From Takakia lepidozioides (taxonomy: Eukaryota > Plantae > Bryophyta): 64,000 nucleotides of DNA. How positions within the stretch are numbered: position 1 is the stretch's first letter; each line of letters starts with the position of its first letter. The stretch lies in the NCBI GenBank assembly GCA_030704615.1, contig CM060734.1:14756001-14820000 (forward strand), written 5' to 3'. The translations under genes and the position numbers were made by a program. Positions 12,380 through 39,000 of the stretch are shown here, piece by piece. The notes beneath the pieces are model-generated. The model was not told the origin of the DNA and ran no database searches. It saw only the letters and a program-made list of their open reading frames with translations.

Positions 12380-13415
12380 GAGATCAATGTGGCCTACGGG
12401 GAGGCATGATTGGCAGACGAGGACGCGTTGCCTTCAGCCTCTCACCAACAAACATGAGATCATTTCAGAAGCGCTTCAAGTGACGAACGAAATGGTTCAT
12501 CTGACATCATCCAAATGTTGAACATGCTAAGGTCTTCTGTAATGTGTTCTGCTTCGTAATGCGGTGCTTCTCTAGATCTTCTTTTTCCAATTTGATGACA
12601 TTCTCGATCTGGAAGACATCCAGATGTGTATAGAAATCCTTAAAAAATAAAATAACCATCAAAATCTGAAGCTGCGGTCCGGGAATGAGGCTTCAAATTT
12701 TGATGGTTATTTGGTTTTTTTAGGATTTATATACACATGTGGATCTGTTCCAGATCGAGAATGGCACCAGAAAAAGGACATGGAGAAGCGCCGCATTACG
12801 AAGCAGGAGACACTACAAAAAGAGCTTCAAAAGGCAGGGCACCCATGAAGGTGCTTGATCAATGGGCGATCGAATCATTCACCTCCATCTCGAATGGTTG
12901 ATGATCCAAATGGTTTCTGTTTGCTTCAACTTTGCCACTATGTTCAACATACCATGCAACAGGTCCCGATATGAGATCAATGTGGCCTAAGGGGAGACAT
13001 GGTTGAGAGACGAGGACGCATTAGCTTCAACCAACAAACATGTGATCATTTCAGAAGCGCTTCAAGTGACGAACGAAATGGTTCTTCATCCAAATGTTCA
13101 ACATGCTGAGGTCTTCTCTAATGTCTCTTGCTTCGTAATGAGGTGCTTCTCAGCTCTTATTTTTCCAATGTTGATGTTCTCCATCTGGAATAGATCCACA
13201 CATGTGTATAGAAATACTTAAAAAACCAAATGACCATCAAAACTTGAAGCTGTGGATGAGGCTTATAAAAGTTTACATGGTCATTTGGTTATTTAAAGAG
13301 GCCGGGTCACATCGTGGATCTGTTCCAGGTGGAGTACATCGACAGATTGGATAAAGTGGATATGAAAAAACACCACATTATGAAGTAGGAGACACTACAA
13401 AAAGAGCTTCAAAAG
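12380..13415. repeat. Tandem duplication (~590 bp period); each unit contains a ~130 bp-arm hairpin (12543-12813 and ~13120-13394)
   Basis: GAGATCAATGTGGCCTA at ~12380 and ~12973. GCTTCGTAATGCGG...ATAACCATCAAAATCTGAAGC pairs with GCTTCAAATTTTGATGGTTAT...CCGCATTACGAAGC. Confidence 0.8.
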
Positions 13416-14960
13416 GGATACCATGTAACAGGTTCCGGTCTAATATGAGATAAAACGAAATTCATTCAATGGGCGATCGAATGGTTGACCATCCAATGAT
13501 TTTCGTTTGCTTTCAAACTTTGTCACTATGTTCAACATACCATATATCAGGTCTCGGACTAATATGAGATGAAACGAAATTCATTCGATGGCTGAACGGA
13601 TGGTTGCCCATCGAAATGAGTTTGATTCGTTTTGAGACTTGGCCAGTATGTTGCATGTACCATCTAAGAGGTCCCAAAGTACTATGAGATGAAACGAAAT
13701 TCGTTCAATGGGCCAACGGATGGTTGCCCATCCAAATGATTTTCGTTCGCTTCGAGACTTGGCCAACATGTTCAATGTACCATCTGATAGGTCGCAGAGT
13801 AATTTGAGATCCACCGAAATTCGTTCAATGGGCCAATGAGGCATTCACCTGTCATCCAATTTTGTTCACTGCGAAAAAGAAATCGTGCAATGCGTGCACG
13901 GTTATTGCACCCATTGAACGGATGTGGTTCAAGCCCAACTTTTGCCCGCATGTGCTTGGACATGTGCAGAGACACAACAGAATAACAAATCATTTGCCTC
14001 CCCATTGGCGTGCTCATCCCTCAACCGATTCGAGAATTTAATTAAATTTAAATGAATTTGAAGCAAATAATTAGGTTTACACTGCCTTTGATTGGGGGTT
14101 TCTGCTACGTATTGATTTTATTTTTGGCTCAATTTTGTTCTGTTGCTTCAAATCTTCCACCGCTACTCCCCTGCAAAACTTTGGACCAAATAAAAATGAA
14201 AAAAAAATAAAAAATATTCTCTTCGCTCACTATTGCAGAGCTCTCTATGAAGAGTGCATAGAGTAGAACACAAATCAAGTTTGCAATGAAAAACAGGGAA
14301 GAAAACTGTGGTTTTGGGTCCAAATGAATTTTGTTCACTCCCAAATTTGGCATGCACATTGCATATATTGTCATTACACATACAGTTCAAAAATGGAATG
14401 AAAAAAAAATCATGTGCACACGAAACGTAGTCCAACAGATCCCAAAGTAATAGCAGATCCAACAGAATTCATTCAACGGGTGAACGGATGGTTGCCTATC
14501 CAAATCATTTTTGTTTGCTTTCAAACTTTGCCAGTGCGTTCGGTACACTCTCTCGCAAGTCCCGGACTAGTATGAAATCAATCGAAATTCATTTGATGGC
14601 TCAACGGATGGTTGCCCATCGTAATGATTTTGGTTCGCTTTGAGACTTGGCCAGTATGTTGCATGTACCATCTAAGAGGTCCCAGAGTAATATGAGATCA
14701 AACGAAATTTGTTCCATGGGCCAACGGATGGTTGCCCATCCAAATGATTTTCGTTCGCTCCGAGACTTGGCCAGCAAGTTCAATATACCATATGAGAGGT
14801 CTCTTAGTAATATGAGATCAATCGAAATTCGATCCATGGGCCAACGGATGGTTGCCCATCCAAATGGTTTTTGTTTGCTTTCCCACTTGGGCAGTATGTT
14901 CTGTGGACCGTCTTACAGGTCCCGGACTAATACGAGGTCAATAGTTCCCCATCCACATGA
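13415..14960. repeat. 120-bp tandem repeat in two blocks of ~4 units separated by ~570 bp of unrelated DNA
   Basis: Unit start AATATGAGATNAAACGAAATTC at 13442, 13561, 13681, 13801 and ~14449, 14569, 14689, 14809, 14929; core GGATGGTTGCCCATCCAAATGATTTTCG. Confidence 0.9.
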
Positions 14961-17934: not shown

Positions 17935-18390
17935 AAAACGACCGCCACTAATGGTGGTCGCTGCATTTATAAAAAAAATAAAAAAAACAAAGCCTCCCTT
18001 GGAGCCTCCTTTGGCTTATATGCCCCCTCTGCCTCATTCCTCGGCCACGCGCAGGGCACACCTCGTAAAAATGACCACCGCCTTGGCGGTCGCTCCATTT
18101 AAAAAACAAAAGAAAACGACAGCCACAAATAGTCGATCCATTTTCCAAAATTAAAAAAATAAGCGACCGGCAGTAATGGCGATCGCTGCATTTACAAAAA
18201 ATATAAGAATTAAAGTGACCACCAGCAATGGCGGTCGCGACATTTGCAAAAAATATAAAATATAAGCGACTGCCAGTAATGGCGGTTGCTGCATTTACTC
18301 AAAAAAAAAAACCCCACCGCCAGTAATGGCGGTCGCTGCATTTACAAAAAATAAAAAATAAAAACGACAACCAGTAATGCCGGTTGCTGC
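17935..18390. repeat. Array of palindromic GCGACCGCC-N5-7-GGCGGTCGC units with A-rich spacers (left hAT subterminal array)
   Basis: About 8 units; the last five are ~50 bp apart (18161, 18214, 18265, 18312, 18363). Confidence 0.85.
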
Positions 18391-18950
18391 ATTAAAATAA
18401 AAATAATACAGAGTTAGAAGCATTGACACAATTGTTTTTCATTACACAAGCAAATCACCGAATACAAACATGAGCAAGTGACGATGCCTTTGGCCGACAT
18501 TTTGGATGGTTATACACATGGTCAACATCTTTTATTTCCCAACACATACACAACAACAATACAAATACTCATAGTGACAAAGATCACACTGGTTTACTTC
18601 ACTACAGAAATGTAAACATGTCCACTAAAGTATGCTATTGCATGCCTATAGCAGTTTTGCTTCAATTCCTTCTACTACTTTGATGGCGGGACGAGGAAGA
18701 TCCTAATCTTGATACTCCGATGGGCTGAAAATCCGAGTCACCCTCGACTTCACCACCACTGCCATGATCGGTGCTGGAATCGTCCTCCCTATCCGACCTC
18801 CCATGTCCAGGCCTTTGAATCTGCAAGCGACCTCGAACCACATTTAGTTCTCTCTGAGGTCGACTCCCACTCCGGTCTTGAATACCATCCACAGTATCTG
18901 ACCTGTTTGTGGGCCGGTCGCCTACAAAAGGCTGAACTATTCTCTGTCGT

Positions 18951-21083
18951 TTATGGACTTGGGACACATTCGAAGGTGGTTTCGAATGAGGTACCGGAGG
19001 AGGTGTGCCTGAGATGGACCGACATTAGATGGTCCAATATGTGAGGAACCACGTACGCATTGTCGGGAGCATCATCGGACCCATCTCCACTATCGGAGGC
19101 AGATGACTCCCTCTGAGATGATTCTTTTTGATACTCAGTATCGTCATTCATCGAATCTACCTCAGAAGCAGAGTCTTCGGAATGCAAATTCCTCTCATAC
19201 CATGCTGCAGCATCATCCGTTGTCATCTCACGTAGCAGTCGAATTGGTATATACATACACCAATTTGTTAGCCCTTACGGGATTCAACCTGTTGCGAATC
19301 TTGTTGTGAACAAATGAGTAACTACTCTAATTGCGTTCGCAAGATGAGGCAGAGCACACTTGGGCAAGAATACACTTCGCAATGGGAGCCAATGTTCTTG
19401 CTCCAGCTCTAATCAAATCCCCCCATTAATGTGACAACATATTGAGCTCTTTTGGATCCGGCATGTCCTCAAAAGGGTCGCGACGATCTGAGAAGCATTG
19501 GTACTCGGATATAGCTCTCTCTGCCATGTTCAAAGGAGCCAGTCGCATAAGCACTCGCACGAGGGCGGCCTTGGCATCAGCGTCGTCTTGGAACATGGTA
19601 TTGTCGAGCAAGAATGGATTGAGCAAAGCCCCCGCATAATGCAAGTCCGTTCGAACCATCGACCGACGGTCGTAAAATGCATCTTCAGCACTGTCCGCAA
19701 GTTCAGGTTCCAAAGAGAATGGATGATACCTCAGGGATTGGACATGGTTCTCAAGATTTTGCATTAGTAACCATGTTTTGCCCATTACTGGTTGCTTTCC
19801 ATCAAACTCCCGCAAAACGATTAACACTGACTCTACCATATAAACAAAGTTTTCACATTTCTTCCAGAAATCATCATTGCGAATGTTGTTCCGAACTTTT
19901 TGATTTTTGCCCAATGACTTGGCTTTTCTGGAGTCCCGCAATGTCTGTGTGTACGCATCCCATTGAAGATCGATAATGGTGTGCTCCAGACTGCTCTTCA
20001 CCGTCACCAACCGATCCACCATCAAGAAGTTAGTGACAAAACGAGTTTTCTCCTGGATTCCGGAGGCTGTATTTGCAGGGTTCATGTCTCCTATATATTG
20101 CCAAAGGGATGTGGTGTGTGCGACATGAATAGCACAACCTTGATAGTACATATTGGGATAACGTGCCAATAGCATGTCTGTAGTGTTTATCATGTTAGCG
20201 GCATTGTCTGTGTATATTTGCACGATTCTATCACTTCCGACCTGTTCGATGAAGTCCGTCAATAGCTGGCGTTGATAACGTCCATCTTTCTTCTCGCCGC
20301 TAGTGTCCATCGATCCCAATAATTGTTCCCCATCTGGACATACAAGCATGACATTGAACAATGGTCTGTTTGTAACAGAACTCCAATCATTGGCACATAA
20401 TAGTGCTTCCATATTTTCTGATACACTCGCCCGTCTTATCATTGATCTTTTGGGTAAGCTCGGTCATGGCGCCTTCTAGCAATCTTGTGCGGAGATTGTG
20501 ATAAGAAGGAGACACGTACGTGGATTTGGACTCCGAGGTTGCTCTAACGGCATAAATAAATGTCGGAAGCCTTGCCACATTAAATGGTATGTTGGCCTCG
20601 AAGAAAAACTGCGCCCATTTTTTTATCCAGCTGCCTTTTCGTAGGAAAGTTAAGGCCTTCCTGCATGGATTGCTACCGTAATCCTCTACTCTGTTGAAGT
20701 GTAGGGGTACAAAGAGGTGTTGAAGCAGGTGTTGCTCCGGCACAACCCACTTGTCCAATGACACCTGAAGCCTCACAAAAGTCACATTGGGTACTAATCG
20801 AGGCATATTGACGGGAAGATGAAGTGTTCTGCTAAGAGGTCGTGTCCAGATCCAAAGACTTTGGAATATTGCCTCCACACTAGGCAAAGTGATTTTTTAC
20901 CCGCATAGATGTTTTAGGGCATAAACCCACCCCATTGCTCTTCACACCTCTATAGCCAAGGTGAGCGAGCAGCCGATCCTTACGATAAGCAAGTTGCAAT
21001 CCACATAGGTTGCACCCAACAGTTTCAGTGGCACTAATAGTGTTCGGGATTACCGTATACCAAGGGCTCTATTCCTCCCTCAT
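18951..21083 (-). pseudogene. hAT-superfamily transposase (BED finger, DUF659 core, hATC dimerisation domain), disrupted
   Basis: CNLC...LLAHLG...LCP (BED); WAQFFFEANIPFNVA; PSYHNLRTRLL; DWSSVTNRPLFN; VQIYTDNAANM; TRF; LHYAGALLNP; SASSCERN*SSYSFVHNKIRNRL. Several stops and frameshifts. Confidence 0.92.
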
Positions 21084-21504
21084 CTTCACCTAATATCCAC
21101 TCCCCTAGGCCCTAGTGATGTAAGCAACAAAAAACAGTCACCTATAAATGAACCTGTGAATGTAGGGTGCAATGCGATAGCCTCACACTTCTTCACCTTT
21201 CACCAACCCAAGTGAGTCGATGCACGTTGTAGTGTTGAGCTTATACATAATCTGCTGAAGTGACTTTGATGGAAGCCACAACGGCAAAAGGTGCGCATCC
21301 TCTTCTTGGGCTACACTCTCGTTCAATGGAAGAGAACATCTAAAGCAACCTCAAGTGTTTGCGCCAAAAGAAGTGAGGAGCTTGGTGACCCTGCTCCCTT
21401 ATATATGCTCCAGGAATGATGAAAGTGAAATGAAAGTGAAATGACAAAATGACGAACCAACATCGTCTACCCGAAAAAGGCGGTACAACCATATTTGTTA
21501 TAAT

Positions 21505-22321
21505 TTTAAAATTAAGCGACCGCTAATACTGCGGTTGCTACTTTTATTTTTTATGAAACACAAGCGACCGCCACTATTGCGGTCGCTTTTGTTTCCTTTC
21601 ATTTTGTGCAATATTGCTGTCGCTTCTATTTTGTATATTTTTAAATTTAAGCGATCGCCCGTATGGCGGTCGCTATTGTTTTTTATTTCAAAATATAATG
21701 CGACCGCCGGTATAGCGGTCGCTTGATTTGTTTATATATTTTAAATAAAGCGACTGCCAATATGGTGGTCGCTTTTATTCTTCATATTTTAAAAACAACG
21801 CGACTGCCAGTACAGTGGTCGCTTTTATTCTCAATATCTTAAAAAAAACACGACCATCAGTACGGTGGTCGCTTTTAATCTTTATATTTTGAAGTTTAAG
21901 CGACTACCAGTGTTGCGGTTGCTTTTATTTTATATATTTTTAAATTTATGCGACCGCCAGTTTGGCGGTCGTAAATATATATTTTATTTTAAAATAAGCG
22001 ACCACCGGTGTGGCGGTCGCTTTTATTTTCATATGTTGCTTGTTTTTTTAATTTTTTTTTGAAATTAAGCGACCGCCATATGGCGGTCGCTTGTTTTATA
22101 TATATCTGCAAAATTGTGCGACCGCCATTACGGCGGTCGCTTGTTTTCTTTTTTGAATTAGGCGACTGCCAATGCGACCGCCAATCTGGTTTTTTTAAAA
22201 ATAAAAATTAAAGTGACCGCCAATCGCTCTTACTTTTTTTATTTCGAAAAATAAAGCGACCGCCAGAATTGGTGGTCGATTTCATTTTGTTAATTTTCAA
22301 AATGTATTTGTCACCGCCACC
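21505..22321. repeat. Array of the same palindromic units with T-rich spacers (right hAT subterminal array, inverted relative to the left)
   Basis: About 16 units, with a near-exact 50-bp period at 21649, 21699, 21749, 21799, 21849, 21899, 21949, 21997, 22047. Confidence 0.9.
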
Positions 22322-23639
22322 GTGTCGACGACGTGGCTGCTTAAGTTCTTCGAAGAGTTGAGAATGAACTACCAAGGGGTGAGGACAGAGAAGTTGCGGA
22401 GCTTGCAAGAGTTCCAGAGGAAGCCTATTGAGAGCTTGAGGGAGGCCTACACTCGCATGAGGCATTTGATAAATGTAACCCAAGGAGTTATAGAACGAGA
22501 CGAAGATTATTATACCATTGGGGAGAGCTACACGGACAGCACCACTACCTAGTACTGCCAAGGCTACGACAATTAGTGTGCTACTGGGGGCGGCCAAATC
22601 TGTGTGTCAGGCTCCATTGTTCTCGGCGACTATGATTGCGACGCCGGGGGTAAGACCAGCTGCAGTGTTTAGACTGGAAGCGACACTGTGTGAGAGTAGA
22701 GAGGTCACTTCATCTTCTGCGGAGTTAGTGGAAGGTGTAGTGGCGGAGGGATCCTCGGAGTTGAGGGTCAAGACTGCCACGGCTGCGCCATGGCAAGCTG
22801 CAACTGTCAGGTTGGTGGAGCTGCCAGCTAGGCCAGCCATTGAACGCGCCATGGTGACACCTGGGGTTGTCTTGTTAGACAACCAGGATGACATTTTCTG
22901 TTTGAGTGGATCGGCAGGCAAGATGTACCGGCCACTTCGGGTTTTGTTGGACTCGGGAGCTCAGCCACTGATGCTGGGCAGAGCTGCTATTGCAGGTTTG
23001 GGCCTCACGGAGGCGGACATGGAGCCTTGTCCTTTCCAGATACAAACATCTCTGGGAGGATCAGAGCATGCTCGGGGCATGAGACGGTGTGAGTTGGCTA
23101 TCAGACTATAGCCGGATCACCCTACAGATGGCTCAGTATTGAGAGCCAATGCCATTATAACAGACGCTGTCTCTTACGATGTCTTGGTTGGTGGGGCAGT
23201 GTTGTACCCCATGGGCTTCACCCTAGATTTTTGGGAGGAGTCAACCTCCTATAGGCCTGGATGGCAGTTAGGGGAGGGCCGGCGTATGCAGCTCCCTGTG
23301 ATATTCATTGGAGGAGTTGCGGTTGCCCAGCGAGGCAAGATGCCGACACTAGCAGCCTTCACAAGTGCAGTGACTTGGCTTGGAGAGTTGGATGTGCCAC
23401 CTCCAACAGAGCATGATGACATGCATGGTATGGCAGAGTCATCTGCCATGGTTGCTCACACGTCATTGTGAGGCACAAACAAGGATTTGCAGCGAGATGC
23501 TGACCGACGGGTGCAACAGACCTGGGTAGAGGCTTTTGTACCGTCAGGAGAGGAAGAGAGTGCGGGGATTGTACCAGGACCACCTCAGTTGTCTCCGTTG
23601 GATACCACACCTATTGTGTGGCAGTATCCGGATAAAGAT

Positions 23640-24570
23640 ATTTCTTTTCTGGACTTGTTTGGCGGGATCAGCACCGGATTGGCTGTTATGTTACAGGCAG
23701 GTGTACGGGTTCAAGAGATACCTATATGTGGAGATGGATGAGACTGCACGACGCGTCTCACTACGCCATGTTGCTCAGCTGGTGCAGCAGTACCCTGATA
23801 TTTGCCGGTGTCTGCAGTTCGTGGATATCAGCAGGCCTTGCCAGCAGACATTTCTTTGCTGGGGACGTAGGATTTGAAGCGGATTGGCTCCATTCATTTG
23901 GTAGTGGCAGGTTGGCCCTGCCAAGGGCATTCATCAGCCGGGCATGACAATGGATTGCGAGACTTGAGGTCGGGTCTGTTTTTGGGAGATGGTGCGAGTT
24001 TTGCGCCACTTACAGCTTCATCAAGCTGTATCTCCAGCATACATCTTGGGAGAATGTGCCACTGATGGGCGATTCTCGGCCAGGGTGATGGCCAGTGTGC
24101 ATCAAGTCCAGTCGTGGCTTGGGTCAGCAATGTTGCTGGATGCAGCTGCAGTGGGGTCACGGGCTTATCGTCCACGGCTATGGTGGACTAATTTGATGCC
24201 ACCCGCACTGCTCAAGCGTGCATTTGATGGGGTGTAGCGGCCAGCACACTTGACAGTGGATAATATCTTGGACACGAGGAGGCAGTCTCAGCGTGTGAGA
24301 CTCGATGACCGTTTGCCTTTGGCAGTGGTCAACAATGTGGGTCAACCACGAGCAACACTATCTACACTGCTCAGCTTCCCAGGATCGCATGCTTTCTGGG
24401 ATAGTAGACCTGACCTCTTGTGGGATGCTCAGTTGCAGCAGTTAGTGGAGCCCAATGCTGATGAGTGAAAGTGGGCGATAGGTTTTACCACTGGTACCAC
24501 AGCAGTGTCGTCTCTTCCTGAGGCATCACGTCGTCAGGTGTTGGGGCAAACAATGGATTTCAATTGCTTG
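23640..24570 (+). pseudogene. DNMT3-like C5 cytosine DNA methyltransferase domain inside the gypsy polyprotein
   Basis: Motifs in canonical order across frameshifts: I FLDLFGGIS (~23646), II YLYVEMD, III DISLL, IV VVAGWPCQG (catalytic Cys 23919-23921), RSGLF, VI IL-ENV (~24050), VIII RAYRPRLWWTN, IX EPNADE*, X RRQVLGQTMD. Confidence 0.9.
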
Positions 24571-27500
24571 ACCTGGATCATTAGCTTGAGTATGGCTGAG
24601 CAGCGCAGACTGCGGTCATCTATAGTCACCACACTTCCCTTGACGGTCTCTCTGCCTACCGAGACGGTACAGACAGCGAGTGGGGGTGAGCAGGTGAGGA
24701 CCACGGGGTGCAGACATCTATGACATATGTGGGAGGTGCTCGAGGTTTAGAGGGAGTCGGCAGCCAAGGCGGCGGTGATGGATGAGATTGGGGATTCTTC
24801 TTGAGTTGATGAGGTCCTCAAGGATGAGATGATGAGGTAGGATGAGGCATTGTAATTGACAGAGCAGGTAGTGGTCACTGCTCAAGAGGTTGCAGCATAG
24901 CAACCACATGACACGTCTCCTACCTCTAAGTCGGCTGGACTTAAGGTTGCAGTTACGGAGGACAATTGGGAGCCTGACATTGGACCCATTGTCACCGGAA
25001 GAGAGAGACGAGGCATATGGCGGTTCCTGAGGGCTTACTGGAATTGTTTTGCTTTCAGTTTGAAGGACTTGGGAGCACTTAAGGGTCAGGAAATTCGTAT
25101 TGAGTTGGCCACTAACACGTCAATCTTTCGGAGACCCTATAGATACAGTGACATGGATAGGTCTTTGATTCAAATAAGGACTCAAGACCTTTGGGAGGCT
25201 GGTTTGGTGGAGCTCTCTGGTAGAGAGTATGCTTCAGCCACAGTGATGCCAGCCAAGAAAGATGTCTATGACAATTGGATGGAGAGACGTATGTGCGGTG
25301 ATTACCGGTCTGTAAATCGTCAGACCAAGTCCGATAAGTATGCCATGCCCACACCAGAGGAGATCTTTGATGCCATTGGGCATGCCAAGGTCTTTAGCAC
25401 TTTGGATTTACGATCCGGATATCACCAGTTGCCGATCAAGGAGGTGGACAAGCAGAAGACGACATTTTGGGGGATCATTGAGCATGGCAAGGATTGCCTA
25501 TATCACTGGCGGTTCTTACCATTCGGGCTTAAGAATGCTCCTGCAGAGTTCCAGATAGTCATGTACAGGATTCTAGCAGGGGTGGAGTTTGCTCGGTGCT
25601 ACATAGATGACATCATCATCTTTAGTGCTACAGTGGAGGAACATGAGAGACACCTTCAGGTGGTATTTGAGCAATTGAGGACGCACAGATTGAAGTTATA
25701 TCCGGGGAAGTGCAAGTTTTTCCACAACCAGATTGAGTATCTGGGTCACATGATATATCCTGGAGGATTGGGGACCTATAACATACTAATGTAGAGGCCA
25801 TTGCACAGATTCCACGCCCCACGGATGTGGGCCGAGTTCGAGCTTTCATGGGGTTGACAAACTATTTTGGACGGTTTGTCAAGGGATTTAGTGCTATTGC
25901 AAAGGCTCTAACCAAGCTTACCAAGGTGGACTAGGAGTGGGAGTGGGAAGATGAGTAAAAACGAGTTTTTCAAGAGCTCAAGGTGAGGTTGACCTCGACG
26001 TCTATCTTGAGACAACCTTTCAGGGGGTGCCACTTTCAGCTGCATATGGATTAGAGCATACTGGGGCTTGGAGCGGTGCTCACACAGGTGGATGATGAAG
26101 GAAGAGAGTTGTGGCTTAAACTAGCCACTCGAACAATGCTGCAGACGCTAAGTATCGCTCATATGAGGGAGAGTGTTTAGCTGCAGTGTGGGCCGTGGCA
26201 CACTTCAAGTGCTATCTATACGACAATCTCTTCACCCTTGTCACGGATCACCAGCCACTCAGGTGGTTGATGGAGTCAGACAAGCTACGGGGAAGCTTGC
26301 ACGGTGGGCACTCATACTCCAGGAGTATGACTTTCAGGTGGTGTATCGACTAGGTTTGGTCAATTGGGATGCGGATGGATTGAATCACAATCCATGCATG
26401 AGCCAGCAGGATGATACTGGAGCTCGGTGGTATGGTGAGACGGATGAGGAGATGGTGCCGGGATGACACACATCTGCATTTTTGTGTATCTTGGCAACAT
26501 GAGGCCAGATTGGACTTACGACAGGGATGACCGTAGACGGAGTGCAGTCTGAGGACCCTGAGGCTAGTGATGAGCCAGATGGTGCCAGAGATATACATGA
26601 GGATTCGGCTTTGTTGGACTACCTCTGCACGGGAGACACGACAACCACTGTGACTGCCAAGGAGAGGGATCAGATCCTACAACGAGCCAAGAGATTCAAG
26701 TGGGATGGGACACACCTGCTCCAAGTGTGGGAGGATGGTCGGGTGAGGATCGTGCCTCACCCAATACAGCATGCACGGTTAGTGCAGCATGCCCATGAGG
26801 AGTTGGGGGATTTTGGAGTGCGACGCACTCATAATCTACTGCAGGGGCAGTATTGGTGGCGTGACATGCACACAGAGGTGCAACAGTTCATGGCTAGGTG
26901 CATGGTGTGTGATAGGGTGCGTGCTTCATTCAACGCCCCTACACCACAACTACATCATCTTCCGATGATGAGATTAGGCTACAAGTGAAATCTTGACTTT
27001 GTAGGATCGTTGCCACCGACAATGCACCAGCACATAGATGTGTTGGTGATGGTGGAGCACTTTTCCAAGTGGATTGAGTTGGTTCCATTGCCTAACAAGG
27101 CAAGTGAGGGGGCTAAGTATGCATTCTTGGATTGTGTGCTTAGCCGATTCAGTGCTCCAGCTGAGGTACTCACGGACCAAGGGAGAGAGTTCTTGGGGGA
27201 GTTTCAGGCTTTGTGTGATAAACCCTTGATAGACCACCGCACCACTTCTCGGGATCATCCTGAGGCCGATGGCTTGGCAGAGAGAGTTGTGTAGACGGTA
27301 AAGAGGGGTTTACGCAAGTATGGCTTGCAGAAGAGACACCTAGGAGATTGGGATCTTCAGGTACCTTGGTTAGCCATGGGCTATAGGTTCAGCAAGCAAG
27401 CTTTACTTATCTCCATCTCACCATATTTCCTTCTCTTTGGCCGAGAGCCGGATTTGCTTGCAGCCATTCGTATGGACACTGCTCAAGTCCTTAACCTTGA

Positions 27501-27876
27501 CGATCCGGACGTGTGGGTACGTGCAGAGTTATTCAAGAAAGTTATGCCCATGGCTTTTGAGAACCTTGCCATTGCACAACACCGTGATACGTTGAGGTAT
27601 GCCACTATACGTAGTGAAAGATATCATCTTGGGGTTCGGAGGTTTAGCCCTGGTGACTATGTTTATTTGTAGCAGACTGCTCTTACGACCTTGGTTGTTA
27701 ATGCAAAATGTGTTATTTTGAGGGTTCGAGAGGTGCTGCCCTCAAGAGTCCTGATCTTGGAGGGTCGGGATGACATGACTTGGAAGGACCATGTGTGTAA
27801 TTGTCTGCCATGTCATCTTCCCGATGTCGATGGCATGATTGACCCAAACTTGGCAGTGGTACCTGCAGGTTTGAGG

Positions 27877-28020
27877 TGCATGTTGTGTGGGTCTGCCAAA
27901 TGGGCATCCGTTATGCTGGTGTGTGATCGATGCTAAAGAGGTTGGCACATGGGATGCTTAACACCACCTCTTGAGAAGGTTCGTGATAGGGATTGGTTAT
28001 GTCCACACTGCTTGGGATAG
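27877..28020 (+). pseudogene. PHD finger at the integrase C-terminus
   Basis: CMLC...MLVCDRC*RGWHMGCLTPPL...DWLCPHC is a C4-H-C3 pattern with the typical W; one internal TAA at 27934-27936. Confidence 0.88.
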
Positions 28021-30018
28021 TGACAAGTGGATATGACTAGTGGCAGCTAACAAGATATGGGAGGCCAAGCTCATATGAGTCAATACACGAGATCCCAGAC
28101 TCAAGTTCACAGGTTGCAAGACGGCGACTAACGATGGGGCTACGCTTGTACCCAGCCTCTTGATCTATCGAGTTTGAGTGTAGTAGGGATAGTGGTGGAG
28201 GACTTAGTGATGCTATAGCCACTATCACATCTTGTGGCTACCTAGACTTAGAGGGACCTAAGCACCAGCTCGGGGGGCGATTGTGGTGGACTAGTGGCTG
28301 GACTAGTGGTGGACTAGTGGTTGCCTAGTGGTGGACTAATGGCAGCCCAATGACTAACTAGTGGCTGCCTAGTGATTGCATAGTGGCACACACTAATGAC
28401 AGCCTAGTGATGGACTAGTGATAGACTAGTGTGTGATGTGCATATGTATTGTGTGGTTTTGAACAACGATGTAGTTGTGTAGCGATATGTATGCGCACGA
28501 CATCACGTCTGGGTTCACGGCGTTGATGATGGGGGACTGCCGAAATAAAAGAAGCCATCGCCAAATTATGAAGCAGCGAGGGGGAGATTCGGAGAGCAGG
28601 GCTTCATGGAAGAGATCGCCAAGGGGATGAAGATGGTGAAAAAGAGCGGAAGGTTGTGAAAGGGGGTGTGGAGGGGGGTGGAGAGGCGGGGGGGAGTGGG
28701 GTTGTAGGCTTGATGAGGCCATTAGTGCGAATTAATGGGGGACAACTTGGGAGACATGAGTAACACCAAGCCAGGGCCAAAGAAAGGAGATGGTTCAATT
28801 CGAAGTACAGGGGAGCCATGGCGGGTGAATAAGCAGGAGACAAGAAATCAAAGAGCGTCGACGGATGCCACTGGACCCATGAAGAATCTGAGCAGGGGAG
28901 AAAAACGAGGAGCCGTCACACCGCAACAGCCCTAAAGAAATGCCAGACAATGCAATTGCAATGAAGGATTGCAATGAAAGGCTGCAGAGAGAAGAGGCAC
29001 GGAAGCCCTAAAGAAGAAGGAGACAGAGGGGGGAAGATGAGAGGAAGTCGAACGTTTGTTGAGGTAAGTAAGCAGAGGGGTGGGAAAGCCCGAGCTGTTG
29101 AGCAGGACGACGAAAACCATCAGTCCCTACTGTGCAAGCTCAAAACGGTTAAGTCCCTGCAGGGGCTCCATCTCACCATTTCCTTCGCACGTGTTGTTTC
29201 CAAAATACCCCTTTCTTTTAAGGAAAAAAAAAAAAAAAAACACGTGCTCATGGCAGCGAAGGACAATAGTGGAAAGTATATTCTCTAGGTGCGACGTATG
29301 CATACGGTATATTCTCTAGATGACACGTATGAATACGGGATGGAGTAGGGGGAAGGTAGCTAGGTAGCTTTGTCGCGATGGTGTATTGGGAAGAAACGTT
29401 GTGGTGCCTGGCGGGTGCTCGTCTCGCATCGGGAAAGCAAGTAAAATTAGGCAGGATTACTGATATGCTTTGGCATCTATGCACAGTGTTGTGCTAGATC
29501 CTGTGCTGTATTTTAGGGTGCACAATGAAGGTTTTGGGGATGGATTATACACGGAGTAGAGTGTCACCAATTTCATTCGATCCGCCTTTGATTGTCAATC
29601 TTGCAAGGCTTGCGTCTGTGAGGAACTTGTTTGAGCATTCGATGTGCTTCGTTGTCTGAATAGCTGCGTTTCCCAGCGTGTATTGGTTGGAATGCCTAGG
29701 TCGGAAAATGAGACCCTAGAGCACTCGTGGCAGCAGAGTCGGAAATATAGCTGTAGCTAATCTTTGAATAGCAATCACAGGTTTTTGGGCTTCCTGCGTA
29801 GTGTTAACTTCAATCATTCTCCCATGAGGACGTTACACCGCATAGCTTGGCAGAATTGCGGTTGCGGTCTGTTCATTTCCAGGCCTGCTTGGTAGAAATC
29901 ATGTTATGTACGTGCATGGTTCTGGTAGCTTGCATTGATCGAGAAGATCTTAAGGAGCGGAAAATGTGGAACGCGGGGCAGGCAGATGTTTAGGCTTCGA
30001 CTGGGGGTAGGCATTAAA

Positions 30019-33000
30019 ATGTATACTGTGGGAAGATTAAGCAACTACATCTCACAGGGTGTTTACACCGTTGCGGGCCCATTTCATCCCTTTGGGGGTG
30101 CGGTTGATATTATCGTTGTGGAACAGGAGGATGGCACCTTCAAGAGCTCACCTTGGTATGTTAAGTTTGGAAAATTCCAGGGCGTGCTTAAGCAAAGAGA
30201 GAACGTGGTGGACGTGGCAGTGAATGATGTAGATGTCAATTGTCATATGTATTTGGATTCCAAGGGCGAAGCCTACTTTCTGAAGGATGCAGAGTCTGAC
30301 AATGAAGAGTCAATTTATTCGCCAACCAGTGCAGTAATATCTGGAGATGAAGTATCTGTTGATCCGATGGTGCTCGAAGCGGCGAAAGAGGGGGATGGGA
30401 CTAATGACAAGGTGATAGAAGATGATGGCGAGAAAGATGACAGTAGCGATGAAAAAGAAGGAGATTTGGAGTTGAGGTTTGAGGGCAGGAAAGCGTCTTA
30501 TTTGTTAGTCCAGCAGGTATTCCTCCTGCTTTTTGCTGTATTCAACTTACATTTTATGAGCAAATAGGTCAGGGTGGAGTGCAGATTTATGATCATCACC
30601 GTCGATTCTACCCCTTTTTTCATTCCTTTTCTCTTAGGAACTGGGTGCAAAACAAAGTGGTGACATCAATAATCAATTCCTTGTTACGGTTATTGGCTAG
30701 TGTTAAGTCGGGGTTAAGTTGCATGCTGTGGCGGTTCTGAACCTGACGCACATTATTTTCCGGGACTATGACTCCAAGGATATGGCGCTACAGAGAGGTG
30801 TCAATGACAACATCTGAAAACAAACACACAGTAAAAAGATAATCCACATGGGATGACACTTGTATAGCTAGAGAGAGCAACCTCTGTTGATTGATTGGAA
30901 GTGCCTACTTAAGGAGTTATGAAGTGGTCGGTGTTGACTGGCAACTAACTTTACAGATATTGAATAGTGAAGTCTACTTTTGAGACCGCATTGCGGAACT
31001 TTGTTTCCATATTCTCTACAGTGACCAATGAAGTATGCAATTTTGAAAGTATTTCTGCATTGGAAAGAATGTACTCATAAGACGTTGTTGGCCGTAGCCT
31101 TGTGGTCATTGACCCCGCGCCCAGTTTGAGCGGAAACCAAAGGGACAGAACCTACCTCTGTCAGGGGCTGACATTGGTAGTAAGACTTACCTTTATACAA
31201 AGAATTGATTCGGGTTTTCCCGATATCCTCTAGAAATCCCTTCACACAAGCATCAATCTGCTGTGTGTGATTTGCCCAAAAACTAGGCCTCAGAAGGGCC
31301 TGGGCTTTTGGCTCAGCCTCGAGACTTTCAAAGTTGGTAAACAGAGGTACAGGCACAATTCTCTTGATAGATTGGAGGAGAGCTTCTCTCTGTGAGAGTA
31401 CCGCGGACAGTGAATCAGAAAAATGAATATTCTTCGGGTTGCCCACACAACGGGCAATTGCACTCTCCCTTTCCTCTCTGCTTCTGTTTACTGTTCAAAG
31501 GTAGGCTTCCTGCCCTGAGTTTAAATTTCAGTCTGGTGCCGAGAGTGGGTAGACCTTGAGGGTCATCCATGATATCCTCCCCCATGTCACAGACTGGAAA
31601 CAGGTTCAGGGAAGTTTTCTGCCTAACTTCATTTGCATCAGACAATTTACTGGTAACAGACATGGCTTTGGACACTACAGTCTCTAAGTCAGATTTATCC
31701 AGCAAGGTCAAGACTGCGGGTCCAGATTCAGATCCTTGAGAATCTCTTCTACTCTCTTCTGCCAGGACTTAGCCTGTTTGACAGGGCGGTCCTGTTTCCA
31801 AGATATAGAGTCGATTAACTTAGGGTATCTGGTGTTGGACGTGTTGCAACTGACCCCACCATCTGACCTTGAATTCATCTCGTTGGGAGCTTAAGGAAGG
31901 CATGCCAAACTCACCCCAAACAGCCACATTGGCTGTTTTGGAGCATGCTGACATGCACTCCTTAAGCATTGGAAAGAAAGAGGAAAAGAAACCAATTGAA
32001 GCAGAGAAATATACTCATTGATAGTTTCCTGCACACTCTGTGTAATTTAAGGCATAATCTGCACTTTTTACCAAGCTTTGTCAAGGCCAATTGTGGGTTG
32101 AAGCAACAACGATATAAAATCCAGTCTGAAAATTGCAATAGCACTTGCAAACAACCAATCACACTAGGTTACATGGGATTGACTGTTGCTTCAAAAGCTG
32201 TCATGAACTACATGCAGTCTATTATGGTTTGATTTCTTGTGAAGGGAGAGAAAGCGGGTTGGTTGATATTCGACTGTCAGTCAAGTATGCACTTTCAAAG
32301 TGTCTCTTGCTTGATCTAGGGCATGCCCTTCGTAGTGTATGCCCTCCTTGTATGGTGCCTCAAAGCCCCAGATTATGTTCCTGCGGTGACTTTCAATCAG
32401 CCCTTCTATTCCCTCGGGAAAAGACTTAGGGACAAGGAATGAAGTTGCTTTCTAGCAGCAGGCTATATGCAATAACCAGAAGAAGAGGACTATGTTTTAT
32501 ATTGGCAGTGTAAATTCAGAATCTCGTGTGCGATTGGTTTGAGCAATAAAATTTTTCTGTAAGCTCATTTTGGGAGTCCAACTAAATAAGAGTTTTGACT
32601 GTTCTCTAATGTAAGCTCGGAACAATCTTGCAGGCTGCTGCTGAAGGTTCTGAGACAAGACTGCCCGGTGGCAAAGAGAACTGTGAACCTGGCACCACAG
32701 TCACCAGAAGTGAGCATGATGTGGAGGCTGTTGGGGAGGACTCTGATGAATTGCTCTCATCCCTTGCTGCTGTGAAGTTTGCTCAGGCACCCTTGGTGGA
32801 GGTGAAAGGCAGAGAGGGCGGGTCAGCAATTCATGCACTTCTCAATCATGCAGTGGGGCTTGATGATCCAAATGATTCAGGGCCTGCTGGTACTCTTGTG
32901 GCAAATGCTGCCTTGGCCTCAATTGCGAAAGCTGCCTCGACTGCTGCTTCCCTGCAAGCAGATGGGCGTCTCCAATCTCCTGTAGGAATGGTGGTTAAGT

Positions 33001-36000
33001 TACCTTCTATTGAAAGATTGGAGTCAGTCCAAGCTGATGCCAACAATAACAAAATAAATGTTATTCCAAGTAATGAGAATGCTGTCTTTCAGATAGATGG
33101 CTCAGATTCTCTGGATACACAATTGGCTGAAGGTGGTATGGACAAGAAGCCTAACATCCAATCAGGGCAGCTTCCAGAGAGTCTTGTGGACCTAAAACAC
33201 AGGGAGAGGAACTCTGATTTGGTTTATGAGAGTGGGGCATCTTCGCCTGAAAATTCAACCCTGATGATTGCTAGTGCAGATGGGGTGGTCATCCTCGAGA
33301 CACCCAGACAAAGGATTTTACCTCCATTTTTATTAGCAGAAGAGGAACTGCAAGAATATCAACCGCAGGTAGGTAGTCTATTGTCAAATGACAAACAGGA
33401 AGTGGAGGAACATCTGAAGGAAAATGCTTCAGTGTCGAAGGAAGAAAGGTGCAAGTCCCTTGAAGGTGCTATTGCTGGACATAATCCTGAAAATACAGAG
33501 GTTTTGGAATGTGGATTTAAGACTGGGATAGATTCTGCTGGTGATGTGAGGGTGAAGCGCAAGTTAAATAATGTGAATGATGCAATCATATCTAGTCGGA
33601 ATGCATCAGATGGTAAAATTGGCACAGGGCATGGAACTGGTGGGCTGGCAGATGTGGCTCAGCAAACAGATGGAATGGCTGGGGAGGAGTCTCCCAAGTC
33701 GAAGGGTTACTTCTTTCAGTTGGACCCCATGGTAGATGGTTATGATAGGGATGAATCACTTGGGAAGTTGACAACATCTGAGAGGGAGCAGAAGTATTCA
33801 GGAAAGGATGGTATGGTTGGCATAGTTTCGAAGGGGAGTCGTATTCCGGCATTCAAGGCCAGTGTTGAACCGATTTTGGAGAAGTGGCAGACAGCCATTA
33901 AAAAAGATGGGGAGCAGGAACCGCCAGAGAAGAAGCCAAGAACCTTGGAGGAAACAGAGGGTTTGGTGGAAGGCAAGGAGAGGCTAGATGCTTGTGCACG
34001 GCGGCAGGCAAGACTGTCTGCAGTTGAAGTGATTTCAAGCCCAAGGCTGAAGGCTGCAGTTGAGCGAGAGCTGGCATGGCGCGATGTGGTAGAGAAAGCA
34101 GCTGCTGCATTGAAGATTGCACCTCTTGCTGCCAAAAGTCACCAGCCTAATCATTCAGACAAAAAGACAGAATCTGGTGCATCAAAGACCTCACCCAAAA
34201 GATTAGAGGATCCTGATAGTTTGTCAAATAATTTAACTGGTCTCGAAACCTTAGATGGGACCTTGGATTCTTCAAATGCTTCACAGAGAAAGTCTGATTC
34301 GGAGCAAGCAGAAAAGAGGTCATGGAACTGGTGGGGCTGGAGAGGCAGTGCTCCCGCTCCCTCCAAGCCAAACTCTGAACAAGGTGATAAGACGGAATTG
34401 AAGGATGCCACAGAAGCAGCTGGCCTTGTGAAGGAGCTTAAAGGGACGGACCTCGATGCAGATGAGGCCAAAGCAATGTCTGTGAATGGACGTGAGCTGG
34501 ATAACCTTGGCTCAGGGATATGTAATGAAAGTGTGAAGGAGGAGGCTGACACAAGGTTGAAGGAAGTGGAGAGAGATGCAGAAGAGGCTGGCATTGTTGA
34601 AGATATTGGTTTGACACATCAAGAAGCATCTCGAAATGAGAGTGGTGCAGGGAGTGCTGTGTTAATGGACTATAGCAAGATCGAGCATGGGTCAATGGAG
34701 AAAAAAGCAAATGGGGATGAGAAGGATATTGACAAAGAGCAATTTCCAGCCGCCTTAAGGGTTGAAGCCCCATTGGTTGAGAAAGGTGGGAAATTGGAAA
34801 GTGGGAGCTCATTGGAAAGTGCTGAAAGTTCTAAAACTGAAAGTATAAATGACCTAGCATCTGCAGGTCGAAGGTCTCAATGGCAGTTGGAAGAGATGGG
34901 AGCTGTGGAAGACAGACAGTCAGATGTCCCCATGACATCAGCAACTTCAAATATGGAGGACATTAGATTGATAGAGGGTGTAGAAGGAATGGAAGAAACT
35001 ACTGGTGATAAGAGGGGCGATCAGGTAGGTGGGGATTTAAGCCAGGAATCTTGCTCTAATTCGGAACAACTAGGAGGGTGTAGTAGGCAAGCTATTGCAG
35101 AGGCCAGTGTTGTTGATAGCTCATCAGCAGTGCCCCTTTTGGAGCAGTCTGGGGATGAACCACCTGCAAGTTTGTTGGTGGAGGACAGTAGCTGTAGGGA
35201 CATTGTGAGTGGTGCAATGGAGCTTGGTTGTGGGGGTGATGCAGCAGGTGATAAATGGACCATTGACATCACAAACGAAAAGCGAATGAAGGAATCGGTG
35301 GGTGATAAATTCCAAGGTCCAAGTAGGAGGTACGAAAGCGGTTTAGATAGTGATGTTGGATGTGTGCATTTGGCCCCCAGTCTTGCTAAAAAAGTGAAGG
35401 AGTTGCCAAGTATGGATTTCAGGGATGAATCCGAAGTAACATGTATTGCAACAGAAGGGGACAAAGATGCAGCTTCAGGAGCTAGAATACATCCTCAACA
35501 TGCTGGAAGTAGTGGTGGTGAGCTCCTTTCTTCAGTTCCGTGTCGGGTGGTCTCACCAGTGGGCTGCAGGAAGGGGGTTTCCTTTGCTGGTTCTCTTAAC
35601 CATATGTCCTCGCAAGATGGATTGGAAGAAGAGGGTTTTTGCAATGACAGCTTTTCTCTTTCGAAGTCTCCTGTGACAGGGGTAGCAAAAGATCTCAACA
35701 GTAAGATCGTAACTGTGGGCCCGGAGATTGTAAGAACAAGTGTAGGTCGTGTTGTGACATCTCCCATGGATGCTGAAGACGAGTTGTGCTCAAAAACAGA
35801 GAGTGCACTGGTACGATCGACCACCTTAGCAACCAGTCCTGACAAAGATGGTATTTCTGAAGGGTTGTATGGTGAAGAGAAGCATGAATTGAAGAGAGAG
35901 GATCTTGCAGAGGAAGGCGATAAACAAGGAGGTTCTCCAAAGAATTCAATGCATTTGGCGTTCCCTGACAGCGATGAGGTTGTAGTAGATGGAGCACTCA

Positions 36001-39000
36001 GTCAGAGCAAGGGAGTGGAGGGTGTAGGGATAGGTCAAGAGACCAGTGGGCATTTGGACACTAGGAGATGCAGAAGTGAGGTTGATGAGGTCAGGGAGAT
36101 GGACATGGAACAGGAAGGAAACAAGGTAGAGGATGAGGTTGGGCGTTCCCTATCCTATGATACACGGGCAGCAAGTCAAAAAAGTATTTACTTTGATGCA
36201 ATGACAAGTGAGGAGGATGAAGGGGAAGGGCAAGCAAATTCTTCAGGTGATGACAACGATGATCTGAGTCCGAACTGGGGTAAGAGTAGTCCGATTGGTA
36301 TTCCAGGGGCACACTCAAGTTCAAACACCCTGTTCACAGTGGTCAGGGATGAGGGCACCCTCTGGCCTCTCTCAGAATCATTGCCAGATGTAAGGTACCC
36401 ATCTGCAGGTGGGCAAATGTCTAATGTTCAGACTAGTTTGAGTCGCTCAGTGGGTTCAGAGCCACTGTCACATAGGCAAGCAGATGCAGTTGGAAGGGGC
36501 TCATCCTCTGAGAGAGTCTTGAGGAGTCCTCTGGAGGGCCCAAATGGGCAGAGAGAGGGCTTGAGTCGATCTGAGGTTGAGAAGGGTGTTGAAATTACAG
36601 GAGCTTCAGGGAGATCAGGGTATGAATCAGACGGGGAGGCTCCAGATGGAGGAGAGGCTACAACAGCTGAAACTGGTATCTTTCTCTTGCTCTCTCTTCC
36701 TCCACCCCGACATAAAAAGTTTCTTCTGTCTCTCTGCTAGGGCTTCCTGTGACATAATACTTTCTTCTTCTCCTCTCGCTGCTAGAGGATCTTTGAAAAT
36801 GTCGCTAAAGGCTTCCTTGCACCAACAAGTGACGGGCTTCATGAGAAGTTTTCCAGACAGCCAAGGCATCAGTGGGTTGGTTTACTGGTAATGTTTGCTT
36901 TCTCTGTAGTCATACCTTCCTGTAAGAGCTTCCTTGCATATGGGTTTTTAAAATGGTATGCCTGCCATCAGTAAGTCAGCTCCCAAGATCATCGTCCATG
37001 CAGGACCCGGTGGCTTTGGGAGGCCTTTCCTGCTCACCAATTCGAGGCTAAGTTTTTCAGATGTGTTTGCTAATGAACAGTGATACCTGCAGGATTTGAA
37101 CTTTCTCTATGTAGGCATCTTCTGAAGTAGCGAATGGGAAGGGAGGAGGCATCCAAAGTGTTTGCCACAACAAAGATATCTTATGATGAGTTTCGTAGTG
37201 CTGGGGCATCTATCGTCACAAACGATAAATTAGTGGTTCGAGTTGGGGGGCACTACTATCCATGGAGTGCAGCAGCTCCATTGGTGCTCGGGATACTTGC
37301 TTTTGGGCAGGTTGTCATGAAGGAAATAGAGGGCGCCATCCCTGTGGAGCACCCTGACCCCTCTGCCAACAGTAAAGCAGGAGCTGGCACCTTGGTTCCC
37401 ACAGCTAGTGGGGGATGGAAGTTGTGGCCCTTCCCTCTACGTCGACCTAAAACCCCCGAACAGAGGATTATCAATCCGACTGTTTCCAGGGAGGCATTAT
37501 TGGTTGCAGTTGGGGAAGCCATGGAAAGCCCTTTTGTGAATGACTTGCTCTTACAGAACGGCTACTACAAGCGCCCATGGAAGCACAAAGTGCGAACAAT
37601 AATTCCTAGTTCAAAAATGTTGTCCACAATGAAGCTTAAGGAGGGCAGTAACCAAATCACATTCACCTTTTTCACCCGAATGCTGGGCCGGCAGCAGGTT
37701 TGTGGCATAACATGCCTAATACCATACCCTGTCTGCGATTGCGTTCCATAATTGTGCTGGGGTTGGATGGGAGTTAAGGAAGTGGTATGCTGAAGTTTTT
37801 CTGCAATGTGTCAAGCGCAGTTGTGGCACTTATTTCGATGCTTTTGGATCCAGGTTGATGCTCAAATCTATCTTTGGAAGTGGAACACACGCATAGTCAT
37901 CTCCGATGTCGATGGTACTATCACAAAGTAAGTTCTGTCATTCATCATTTCTTCCAATGCAAAACACTTTGTTCAATGGGCAATTTACTCTTCATGCCCA
38001 TGTAGAGAAAGTCATTGCTGTTTGTTTGTTTTACCATACTCCTCCCCAAATATGATATTCTATTCAAAGACAGCTGAGCCCTGAATTGATGTGTTTAGCT
38101 CTGTAAGAAATGCAGTTTTGATACTGGTTGCCATCTAGTCATAGTTCTTGCCAATATTTGCTAGCCAACTTGAGTTAGAGTTAGGTGACCTTCCTGGGAA
38201 TGGAAGGTTGTGACATGGCGTGTTTGTCGCATTTGTCTTGTCCTTAGGCTTTCCTCCCCAGACTTCCTCAATGTCACCTCCATGTTCTGGCTGCCTGCTG
38301 GTGGTGTGGTCAGGCAAGGTCTGATGACCGCTGAGGTTTGAGTTATGACTGCTGTGGGGGGCATCTTTCTGAAGATTTTTGTACGGGTGTGCTGCTCAAT
38401 GGTCCACATGTCTTTACAACTAATTAAAAGCTAACAAAATTTACAAGCTAGAGTTGTTTTAGGATTTTCGTCTTTGTACATGTTCACAGCATCCCACGGT
38501 TTGCTGGTTCACATGAAAAGAATGGGGAGTACACTACTGTTTTTGGCATGTGTGAACAGATTCCGGCGGGTTTATTTGCTGATTCATGCTTGAGTTGCAG
38601 ATCAGATGTGTTGGGCCAGGTGATGCCATTGGTGGGCAAGGATTGGACACAGTCTGGAGTTGCCCGCCTGTTCTCTGCTATCAAGGTGCATCATCCTCCT
38701 AGAGATGGTCCTTGGAAGATTTGTGAAAGTTGCCGTCCTCACTGAGGGCTCATTCGAGTGAGGGCAAGTGTGGGGGAAAAAGTCAGGGGATGAATTCATA
38801 CAAGTGTGCTGCTAAATGAAGCGATATGGTTTTGTTCTCCACTAACAAACTCTTTGAAGGGCAATCACATGGTGCTGTCACTTAGTCTGCTCTACAATGC
38901 ATGTTTGGAAAACATCCTTACCTTCCTGAGGCACCAAGATGCAAGAGCTGCTTGTGATTGTGCCACAGGAAAATGGGTATGAGCTGATGTTCTTGAGTGC

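Follow-up and report, generated by a model that had tools for sequence, protein, structure and literature searches.

A moss member of the Gypsy-DNMT3 retrotransposons, with a conserved amber codon predicted to place the methyltransferase with Gag and a candidate integration junction inside the long terminal repeat

The closest described relative of the element reported here is KnitGypsy-Dnmt3, a Gypsy retrotransposon of the alga Klebsormidium nitens (de Mendoza et al. 2018, PMC5890265), whereas our element resides in a land plant, the moss Takakia lepidozioides. It was found in a 64,000-nucleotide stretch of assembly GCA_030704615.1 (contig CM060734.1, positions 14,756,001 to 14,820,000, forward strand), called the window below. 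Both elements combine Gypsy domains, an intronless and unpermuted DNMT3-like domain, purifying selection, and repeats (here A and B) in the order A-coding-B-A-B; for the Klebsormidium element these DIRS-like repeats were noted without explanation (PMC5890265). SymbioDIRS-Dnmt3 is likewise a retrotransposon-borne cytosine methyltransferase with the same repeat layout, and its enzyme methylates CG in yeast (PMC5890265). DIRS elements, however, use a tyrosine recombinase, while the moss element uses an rve integrase; no match to tyrosine recombinase was found in the intact relative L012, where rve integrase and protease are both present. EpiLTRs (bioRxiv 10.64898/2026.05.21.726589) also pair a methyltransferase with a chromatin reader, but differ in their DNMT4-related DNMTs, DAM and chromodomain. 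The host enzymes PpDNMT3a/b share the unpermuted DNMT3-type catalytic domain, but plant DNMT3 has a C-terminal DUF3444 (PMC6453930, PMC8566409), and none was found in the first open reading frame (ORF1) of L012.

A first, sequence-only reading of this DNA had described a writer-plus-reader retroelement in a land plant. The element does not appear to be a new acquisition, since the published Klebsormidium element apparently shares its reverse transcriptase (RT) lineage and also its unusual arrangement of repeats. The window RT falls in a clade with K. nitens proteins P0083 and P0088 (SH-aLRT 98, in a tree with five outgroup rows); those two records hold no DNMT. In KnitGypsy-Dnmt3 the DNMT lies within the ORF of the RT (PMC5890265), whereas in the window's clade the same frame is split by a conserved TAG followed by CARYYA (R, purine; Y, pyrimidine). 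The available text of PMC5890265 mentions no PHD, readthrough, self-priming, junction internal to the long terminal repeat (LTR), single-B copies or target duplications, though its Fig. 4c may show a PHD. A 2019 opinion paper gives such transposons as absent from land plants such as tracheophytes (PMC6338049), and a 2026 preprint mentions "streptophytes (Gypsy-DNMT3)" and may include bryophyte elements in its supplementary figure 2D (bioRxiv 10.64898/2026.05.21.726589). The literature searched, most subscription papers aside, held no report of a land-plant or bryophyte Gypsy-DNMT3, of a PHD on such integrases, of a readthrough site after a DNMT, or of an LTR-internal junction, and the main text of a plant LTR survey contains neither "PHD" nor "methyltransferase". 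The kind of element is thus already known from Klebsormidium; what we did not find in print are the placement of the TAG stop, the putative LTR-internal junction, and a PHD apparently of the class that reads histone H3 unmethylated at lysine 4 (K4me0). The land-plant range, and a stop that would place the DNMT with Gag, are well supported by the comparisons below.

The sequence at 22343-28502 (+) is almost certainly a dead, 5'-truncated Ty3/Gypsy copy encoding a DNMT3-like methyltransferase. By three-frame translation of 22200-28500, the plus-strand domain order is gag remnant, protease, DNMT3-like C5 methyltransferase, RT, RNase H, integrase and PHD, and Pfam searches recover the Ty3/Gypsy order Gag-protease-RT-RNase H-integrase. 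The sequence-only reading had recognized a real element but drew its limits at 22322 and 28432; the coding remnant starts at about 22343 and the 3' end is 28502. The parts are as follows.

22343-22495 (+): gag remnant, 76% identical to residues 168-218 of the intact ORF1 protein P0179, with a weak Retrotrans_gag match
22854-23267 (+): aspartic protease, DSGA at 22950-22961, 55% identical to the Marchantia P0002 protease, with a weak Asp_protease_2 match
23631-24588 (+): DNMT3-like C5 cytosine methyltransferase domain with motifs I-X, interrupted by stops and frameshifts; assigned by motifs, a Pfam piece and the family profile, and by a relative's modelled fold, which matches DNMT3A/B
24898-24906 (+): in-frame TAG (24898-24900), then CAACCA (CARYYA), the predicted readthrough site ending ORF1; invariant in the host family, same site in relatives
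25042-25782 (+): reverse transcriptase, RVT_1 E 2.9e-30, 69% identical to P0035
26004-26385 (+): RNase H, frameshifted, RT_RNaseH E 1.3e-14
26770-27489 (+): integrase, H2C2 zinc finger and DDE core, Integrase_H2C2 E 4.4e-12, rve E 4.3e-11
27877-28014 (+): C-terminal PHD finger of the integrase, interrupted by a single stop (read as X), PF00628 E 1.5e-10
28018-28020 (+): end of ORF2
28272-28280 (+): G-rich polypurine tract immediately 5' of repeat B; same motif before the first B (B1) in relatives
28281-28502 (+): repeat B (first LTR part), which contains an 11-bp tandem array and whose terminal CACGACA is the element's 3' end; placed by read depth, loose contig ends and a terminus shared with relatives

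The methyltransferase motifs lie in order between protease and RT, distributed over three frames, much as the sequence-only reading had described them: FGG (23658-23666), the motif II Glu (23731), GWPCQ (23910-23924), ENV (24050-24058), RPRLWWTN (24169-24192), EPNADE (24448) and GQTMD (24544-24558), all on the plus strand. A 72-codon piece around motif IV matches Pfam DNA_methylase at 26.4 bits (cut-off 22); two other pieces gave no Pfam match, and the region scores 370 bits against the family profile. The integrase does end in a PHD finger rather than a chromodomain, for which neither the window's PHD piece nor ORF2 of L012 gave a match. The copy is dead, as had been claimed: the DNMT carries about five frameshifts and three in-frame stops, more breaks follow downstream, and the element's 5' end and some 320 gag codons are missing, with no trace of the missing part elsewhere in the window. 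Against its family in host DNA run X1, the copy has A for G at 183 places and T for C at 163, with 62 and 59 in the reverse directions, a bias with the pattern expected of cytosine deamination. Depth drops to the unique level past about 28520, with loose ends of 67 contigs at 28502. In X1, summed contig depth over the whole element, DNMT included, is about 80,000-360,000, a figure of depth and not of copy number, against about 40 in the unique flank; the family is highly repeated in the host genome.

Relatives' loci were fetched by RT only, which avoids a bias toward DNMT, taking the best 80 of 485 confirmed loci plus two more. Sixty-one had at least 600 nt upstream of RT; one of these, L082, is an unrelated Gypsy and was set aside, leaving 60 informative loci. 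A DNMT precedes RT in 57 of these, or in 48 of 50 distinct insertions; a PHD is present in 39 of the 41 loci with enough downstream sequence. The three relatives without DNMT (L025/L026 and L066, two insertions) are internal deletions that keep both ends and RT-integrase and have lost gag and protease along with DNMT. Between L012 and L081, which are intact, DNMT has a dN/dS of about 0.07 (dN 0.138, dS 1.93, the latter near saturation), and the corresponding pairs are 0.135/1.40 for protease, 0.040/1.14 for RT and 0.133/2.3 for PHD, values that indicate purifying selection on DNMT comparable to that on protease and PHD. Ratios among young decayed copies are uninformative (0.23-0.72 for DNMT, 0.17-0.69 for RT). 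Because it is carried by 57 of 60 relatives and is under purifying selection, the DNMT is a component of the family, not passive cargo. Trees of DNMT and RT share strongly supported groups, with a patristic Spearman correlation of 0.50 and deep branches unsettled. A search with the C-terminal half of DNMT gave 34 proteins, of which the closest are 55-66% identical, with Marchantia polymorpha, Calypogeia fissa, Riccia sorocarpa, Sphagnum jensenii and S. fallax as named hosts; RT found 73 and adds Closterium and K. nitens, and Coleochaete scutata was also added. A profile search returned 326 clusters at E <1e-30. Searches of IMG/VR with the DNMT and RT alignments found no relatives. The intact L081 (1-9285) is filed under a cyanobacterial metagenome-assembled genome and is most likely misbinned plant DNA.

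The DNMT domain, intronless and unpermuted, is predicted to be a cytosine methyltransferase whose catalytic motifs are kept in intact relatives: among 132 stored domains, 117 have the catalytic Cys and 124 an ENV-type motif. Motif IV reads EC rather than PC in 64 of the 132. A structure model of the DNMT domain of relative P0007 (pLDDT 92.4) aligns by VIA-align with DNMT3B (Z 28.9, rmsd 2.6, 279 residues) and DNMT3A (Z 27.7, rmsd 2.6, 270 residues), with M.MpeI next (Z 25.6), and by Foldseek it is closest to DNMT3A/B (E 6e-20). Profile searches rank DNMT3A (E 2e-25) ahead of tobacco-type DRM (1e-12) and HhaI (2e-8). By model and profiles alike, the nearest solved relatives are DNMT3A/B and not DNMT1, DRM, DNMT2 or bacterial enzymes, in keeping with the DNMT3-like assignment made at first sight.

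What the first reading overlooked is a stop codon after the DNMT. Its view that the DNMT belongs to the polyprotein stands in that the domain is a coding component, but that component closes a Gag-protease ORF, and a conserved TAG separates it from RT-integrase-PHD. ORF1 proteins of Marchantia and Calypogeia comprise Gag, protease and DNMT in that order and stop about 85-100 residues past the DNMT, and the nearest RT proteins begin just upstream of RT. Intact L012 and L081 explain these separate proteins: each has two ORFs in one frame (1369/1355 and 1047 codons) split by a single in-frame TAG. Within the host family, variants stay below 15% at every position of 24877-24907, whereas the linker's five further stops are peculiar to the window copy. 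The hexamer after the stop is CAACCA in the window, CAACTA in L001, CAGTTA in L012 and CAATCA in L081, all conforming to CARYYA, while the count of CARYYA after a stop triplet is 1/226 in the window element, 1/252 in L012 and 1/138 in L001. UAG with CARYYA occurs in four of five families, a Sphagnum-like family being the exception. Tobamoviruses use UAG-CAR-YYA as their type I readthrough signal (PMC3542737), and the moss site shares with it the lack of a conserved downstream structure; scans 3' of the stop in five copies found no conserved RNA structure (z-scores -0.63, 0.05, -0.15, -0.81 and -3.41).

The amber codon is probably read through to yield RT-integrase-PHD. The readthrough predicted here differs from the tobamovirus case in that it would control access to the RT-integrase of a retrotransposon, placed after a packaged enzyme. 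Since the DNMT ends a Gag-protease-DNMT ORF1, it is likely produced at the Gag level, which would point to a job inside the particle. Writer (DNMT) and reader (PHD) are probably not on one mature protein, because the conserved amber codon lies between them. Among other retroelements, readthrough is known for the env of SIRE1 (cited in PMC2194720), and Tj1 of Schizosaccharomyces japonicus requires an in-frame stop to hold Pol low (PMC6317226, PMC4600332). The Tf1/Tj1 group has its stop after Gag, together with ordinary paired LTRs, whereas in the moss element the stop follows Gag-protease-DNMT. Two families weigh against a general role of the stop. In the Sphagnum-like family, with 27 loci the largest related one, the stop is TAG in 21 and TAA in six, the following hexamer is CAACCC in 23, and an ATG stands two codons past the stop. 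In a second moss family, which comprises 35 loci and is about 42% identical in RT, a conserved stop is absent and DNMT and RT share one unbroken ORF, as they do in P0054, P0084 and P0092; control of the ratio is not needed by all members. A second domain order, RT-RNase H-DNMT-integrase-PHD, occurs in 34 of 150 listed representatives (P0211, P0221, P0227, P0296 and others), which form their own clade in both the RT and DNMT trees; P0224 has a Tudor domain after the PHD.

The repeats follow an unusual plan. L010, L011 and L042 have the layout A-coding-B-A-B, element ends are TGTCA(T/C)G and CA(C/T)GACA, and target duplications of 4 bp are perfect in six of the seven units with both ends among relatives; the window copy keeps the 3' end only. 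Two full co-linear terminal LTRs, as the ordinary plan has them, were not found: the layout in relatives is either A-coding-B-A-B or A-coding-B. The internal B|A junction consists of the right end, two bases and the left end (CA-NN-TG) in 19 loci, and loose contig ends show it in host-family copies too. In relatives B begins at the G tract, and no tRNA-type primer site was found after repeat A; in 14 of 16 loci the 12 nt after A have their best pairing partner 30-36 nt past a TATA box, the paired sequences differing among four families, with compensatory changes between families. The scan for this self-priming was made without a shuffle control, second-best scores are close (8.6-11.0) and the start site is itself a prediction, all of which tells against reading too much into the pairing. 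Primer sites complementary to the RNA's own 5' end are known from Tf1, sushi and Tcn1 (PMC6317226, PMC4600332); the integrase of plant Tcn1 ends in a chromodomain, that of the moss element in a PHD. Taken together, it is well supported by sequence that the true LTR is B+A, running from the purine tract to the predicted self-priming site, with a TG..CA attachment junction inside it.

Ordinary reverse transcription of such an element would therefore give B.A-coding-B.A, whose ends differ from the attachment ends. As expected if integration starts from a circle junction, the genomic forms read as circular permutations of B.A-coding-B.A. Circle junctions of IS3 and IS911 are likewise symmetric two-end junctions cut by a DDE enzyme. 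Among 29 distinct 3' ends (duplicates merged, also by shared flank; L048, L051 and L067 omitted as rearranged or unclear), 13 are B-A(-B) and 16 have a single B, as in the window copy. Integration at the LTR-internal junction is, on this evidence, the reading we lean to. Against it, the form A-B-A-coding-B that a symmetric two-LTR circle should also give occurs in none of 16 distinct 5' ends, an asymmetry that is unexplained, and single-B copies could reflect later recombination or assembly collapse; collapse of short reads may inflate their count. The two-LTR circle-junction model of Panganiban and Temin (1984) resembles the present proposal in a symmetric two-end junction cut by a DDE enzyme, but was rejected for retroviruses, whose precursor is linear (PMC11054761). 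The retroviral junction has a 4-base spacer, whereas that of the moss element has two bases and lies inside the LTR. A staggered cut at the moss junction would leave CA ends with 2-base overhangs, as are found in retroviral intermediates (PMC11054761).

The PHD finger of a relative has as nearest structures CHD4, PHF12, PHF21A, KAT6A, ATXR5, KDM5, DPF3 and UHRF1 (best 60 of 85), and carries Gly at the position of the Trp in the K4me3 cage. Fingers of the CHD4, PHF21A (BHC80), KDM5 PHD1 and UHRF1 class presumably bind unmethylated H3 tails, and a reading of unmethylated H3K4, rather than of H3K4me3, by the element's PHD is slightly favoured. Against this, most PHDs of the near clade have no acidic residue before the first Cys, a feature we take to be typical of K4me0 readers. 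It is plausible that the PHD steers insertion away from active promoters.

These observations can be joined into one explanation. Readthrough would set a ratio in which DNMT is packaged at the level of Gag and RT and integrase at a few percent. The RNA 5' end would pair just past the LTR and self-prime as in Tf1, plus-strand synthesis would start at the G tract, and the product would be B.A-coding-B.A. Its ends would be joined, and integrase would make a staggered cut at the palindromic CA-NN-TG between B and A, leaving processed ends with 2-base overhangs. Insertion, with 4-bp duplications, would then yield either A-coding-B-A-B, still capable of another round of replication, or A-coding-B; both forms are seen in genomes. 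The weakest steps are the last two, in which packaged DNMT would methylate the cDNA beforehand, so that arriving DNA is marked like the host's, and the PHD would guide integrase to nucleosomes lacking H3K4 methylation. To the whole, that is, a readthrough-controlled DNMT at the Gag level, methylation of cDNA in the particle and integration at an LTR-internal junction, we assign a probability of roughly 0.6. For cDNA as the DNMT's substrate, the odds seem about even. Two results count against this: the tested Klebsormidium DNMT domain was inactive in yeast, a result its authors deem inconclusive (PMC5890265), and the element's CG observed/expected of 0.50 is not set apart from its surroundings (window 0.59, another Gypsy 0.81, a lipin exon 0.29). 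More speculative is the widest formulation, a Gypsy lineage spread across streptophytes, with abundant copies in bryophytes and intact ones in Marchantia, that might integrate from a circle by a cut at the palindromic junction inside its LTR and methylate its own cDNA with a DNMT3 set at the Gag level by amber readthrough, possibly choosing thereby which junction integrase cuts; we regard this as doubtful in its entirety.

Other explanations account for parts of the same evidence. That the DNMT is passive cargo, a one-off insertion or algal contamination fits a broken window copy and three relatives without DNMT, but was rejected as highly improbable given strong selection, presence in 57 of 60 relatives and the moss affinity of the neighbouring lipin gene: those three relatives are internal deletions, and the strongly supported groups of the DNMT tree reappear in the RT tree. 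On that point the sequence-only reading, which had taken the domain as no passive cargo and the host as a land plant, has held up. It is rather unlikely that ORF2 is reached by splicing or downstream re-initiation, the TAG being an ordinary ORF1 stop or a splice acceptor. The ATG past the stop in the Sphagnum-like family would serve re-initiation, Marchantia gene models P0004 and P0016 join ORF1 to RT, and the in-frame stop of Tca2 did not act as a portable readthrough signal (PMC2194720); yet no such ATG exists in the window family, L001, L012 or L081, the joined models are predictions, and both the frame kept across the stop and four different hexamers that all fit CARYYA argue for readthrough. 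Contig 25 of run X5 covers the stop without a break, but X5 is only guessed to be RNA, no run being recorded as such, and it carries no weight here.

For the repeats, the chief competitor is DIRS-style templating from the internal B|A, giving a linear cDNA with TG and CA ends and no circle, single-B copies arising later by recombination between B1 and B2. It would explain why A-coding-B-A-B alone is seen; also in its favour, the A2|B2 join (the second A against the second B) is identical in all near-family copies seen, and a solo A-B unit with a 4-bp duplication (L070, 16855-17355) shows that such recombination can happen. Templating nevertheless seems to us the less probable course: the predicted primer site marks the end of A and the purine tract the start of B, which makes A2|B2 exactly the end-to-end join of an ordinary linear LTR cDNA, B2 lies beyond reach of a normal strong-stop jump, and the far family has three variants of the join. 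The DNMT might alternatively have another target, shielding the internal (3' LTR) junction from the element's own integrase in the manner of restriction-modification, which would leave some copies with A-B-A and hence capable of replication. The junction does hold CG and CWG sites, only the 5' junction is ever found opened (0/16 against 13/29), and the DIRS-Dnmt3 of Symbiodinium and the Klebsormidium element both pair a DNMT with A..B-A-B; DIRS-type elements without a cytosine methyltransferase also have split repeats, however (PMC5890265), and chromodomain LTR elements carry methyltransferases too (bioRxiv 10.64898/2026.05.21.726589). We consider shielding improbable.

The host's lipin (PAH) gene at 30019-41319 (+), 1.5 kb downstream of the element, has its best named matches in Sphagnum (86%), and no alga is among the best 120 of 1222 matches. 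In a 17-row tree with no algal rows it groups with Sphagnum and Physcomitrium (98/97), outside Sphagnum itself; the host is a moss. The gene contains a very long open stretch of 1376 codons (32610-36740). Adjoining the truncated 5' side of the Gypsy copy is the remnant of a hAT-like DNA transposon (18132-22340; DUF659 on the minus strand at 19426-20896), set between two arrays of roughly 50-bp repeats, with no terminal inverted repeat in the stretches compared. A second Gypsy at 56188-58827 (-) has RT, RNase H, integrase and SH3_Tf2-1, and a further integrase lies at 52509-53423 (-); neither matched the DNMT or PHD queries. Elsewhere in the window are decayed pentatricopeptide (PPR) motif repeats of the VDMYAKCG type (2314-5311), a long inverted duplication (6868-8344 and 8856-10028, 92-95% complementary) and two arrays of 120-bp tandem units (12890-14924).

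What cytosine methyltransferases do in retrotransposons has been a standing question since 2018, in part owing to the experimental difficulty of the known hosts. With intact Gag-protease-DNMT gene models in Marchantia polymorpha, it becomes testable in a model plant. The position of the stop predicts that the DNMT would be a bulk component of the particle, and the repeat layout predicts a DDE integrase whose substrate is a junction, either internal or in a circle. LTR-finding pipelines likely miss such elements, since many copies have no paired LTRs, and their ORF1 models could be mistaken for host methyltransferase genes.

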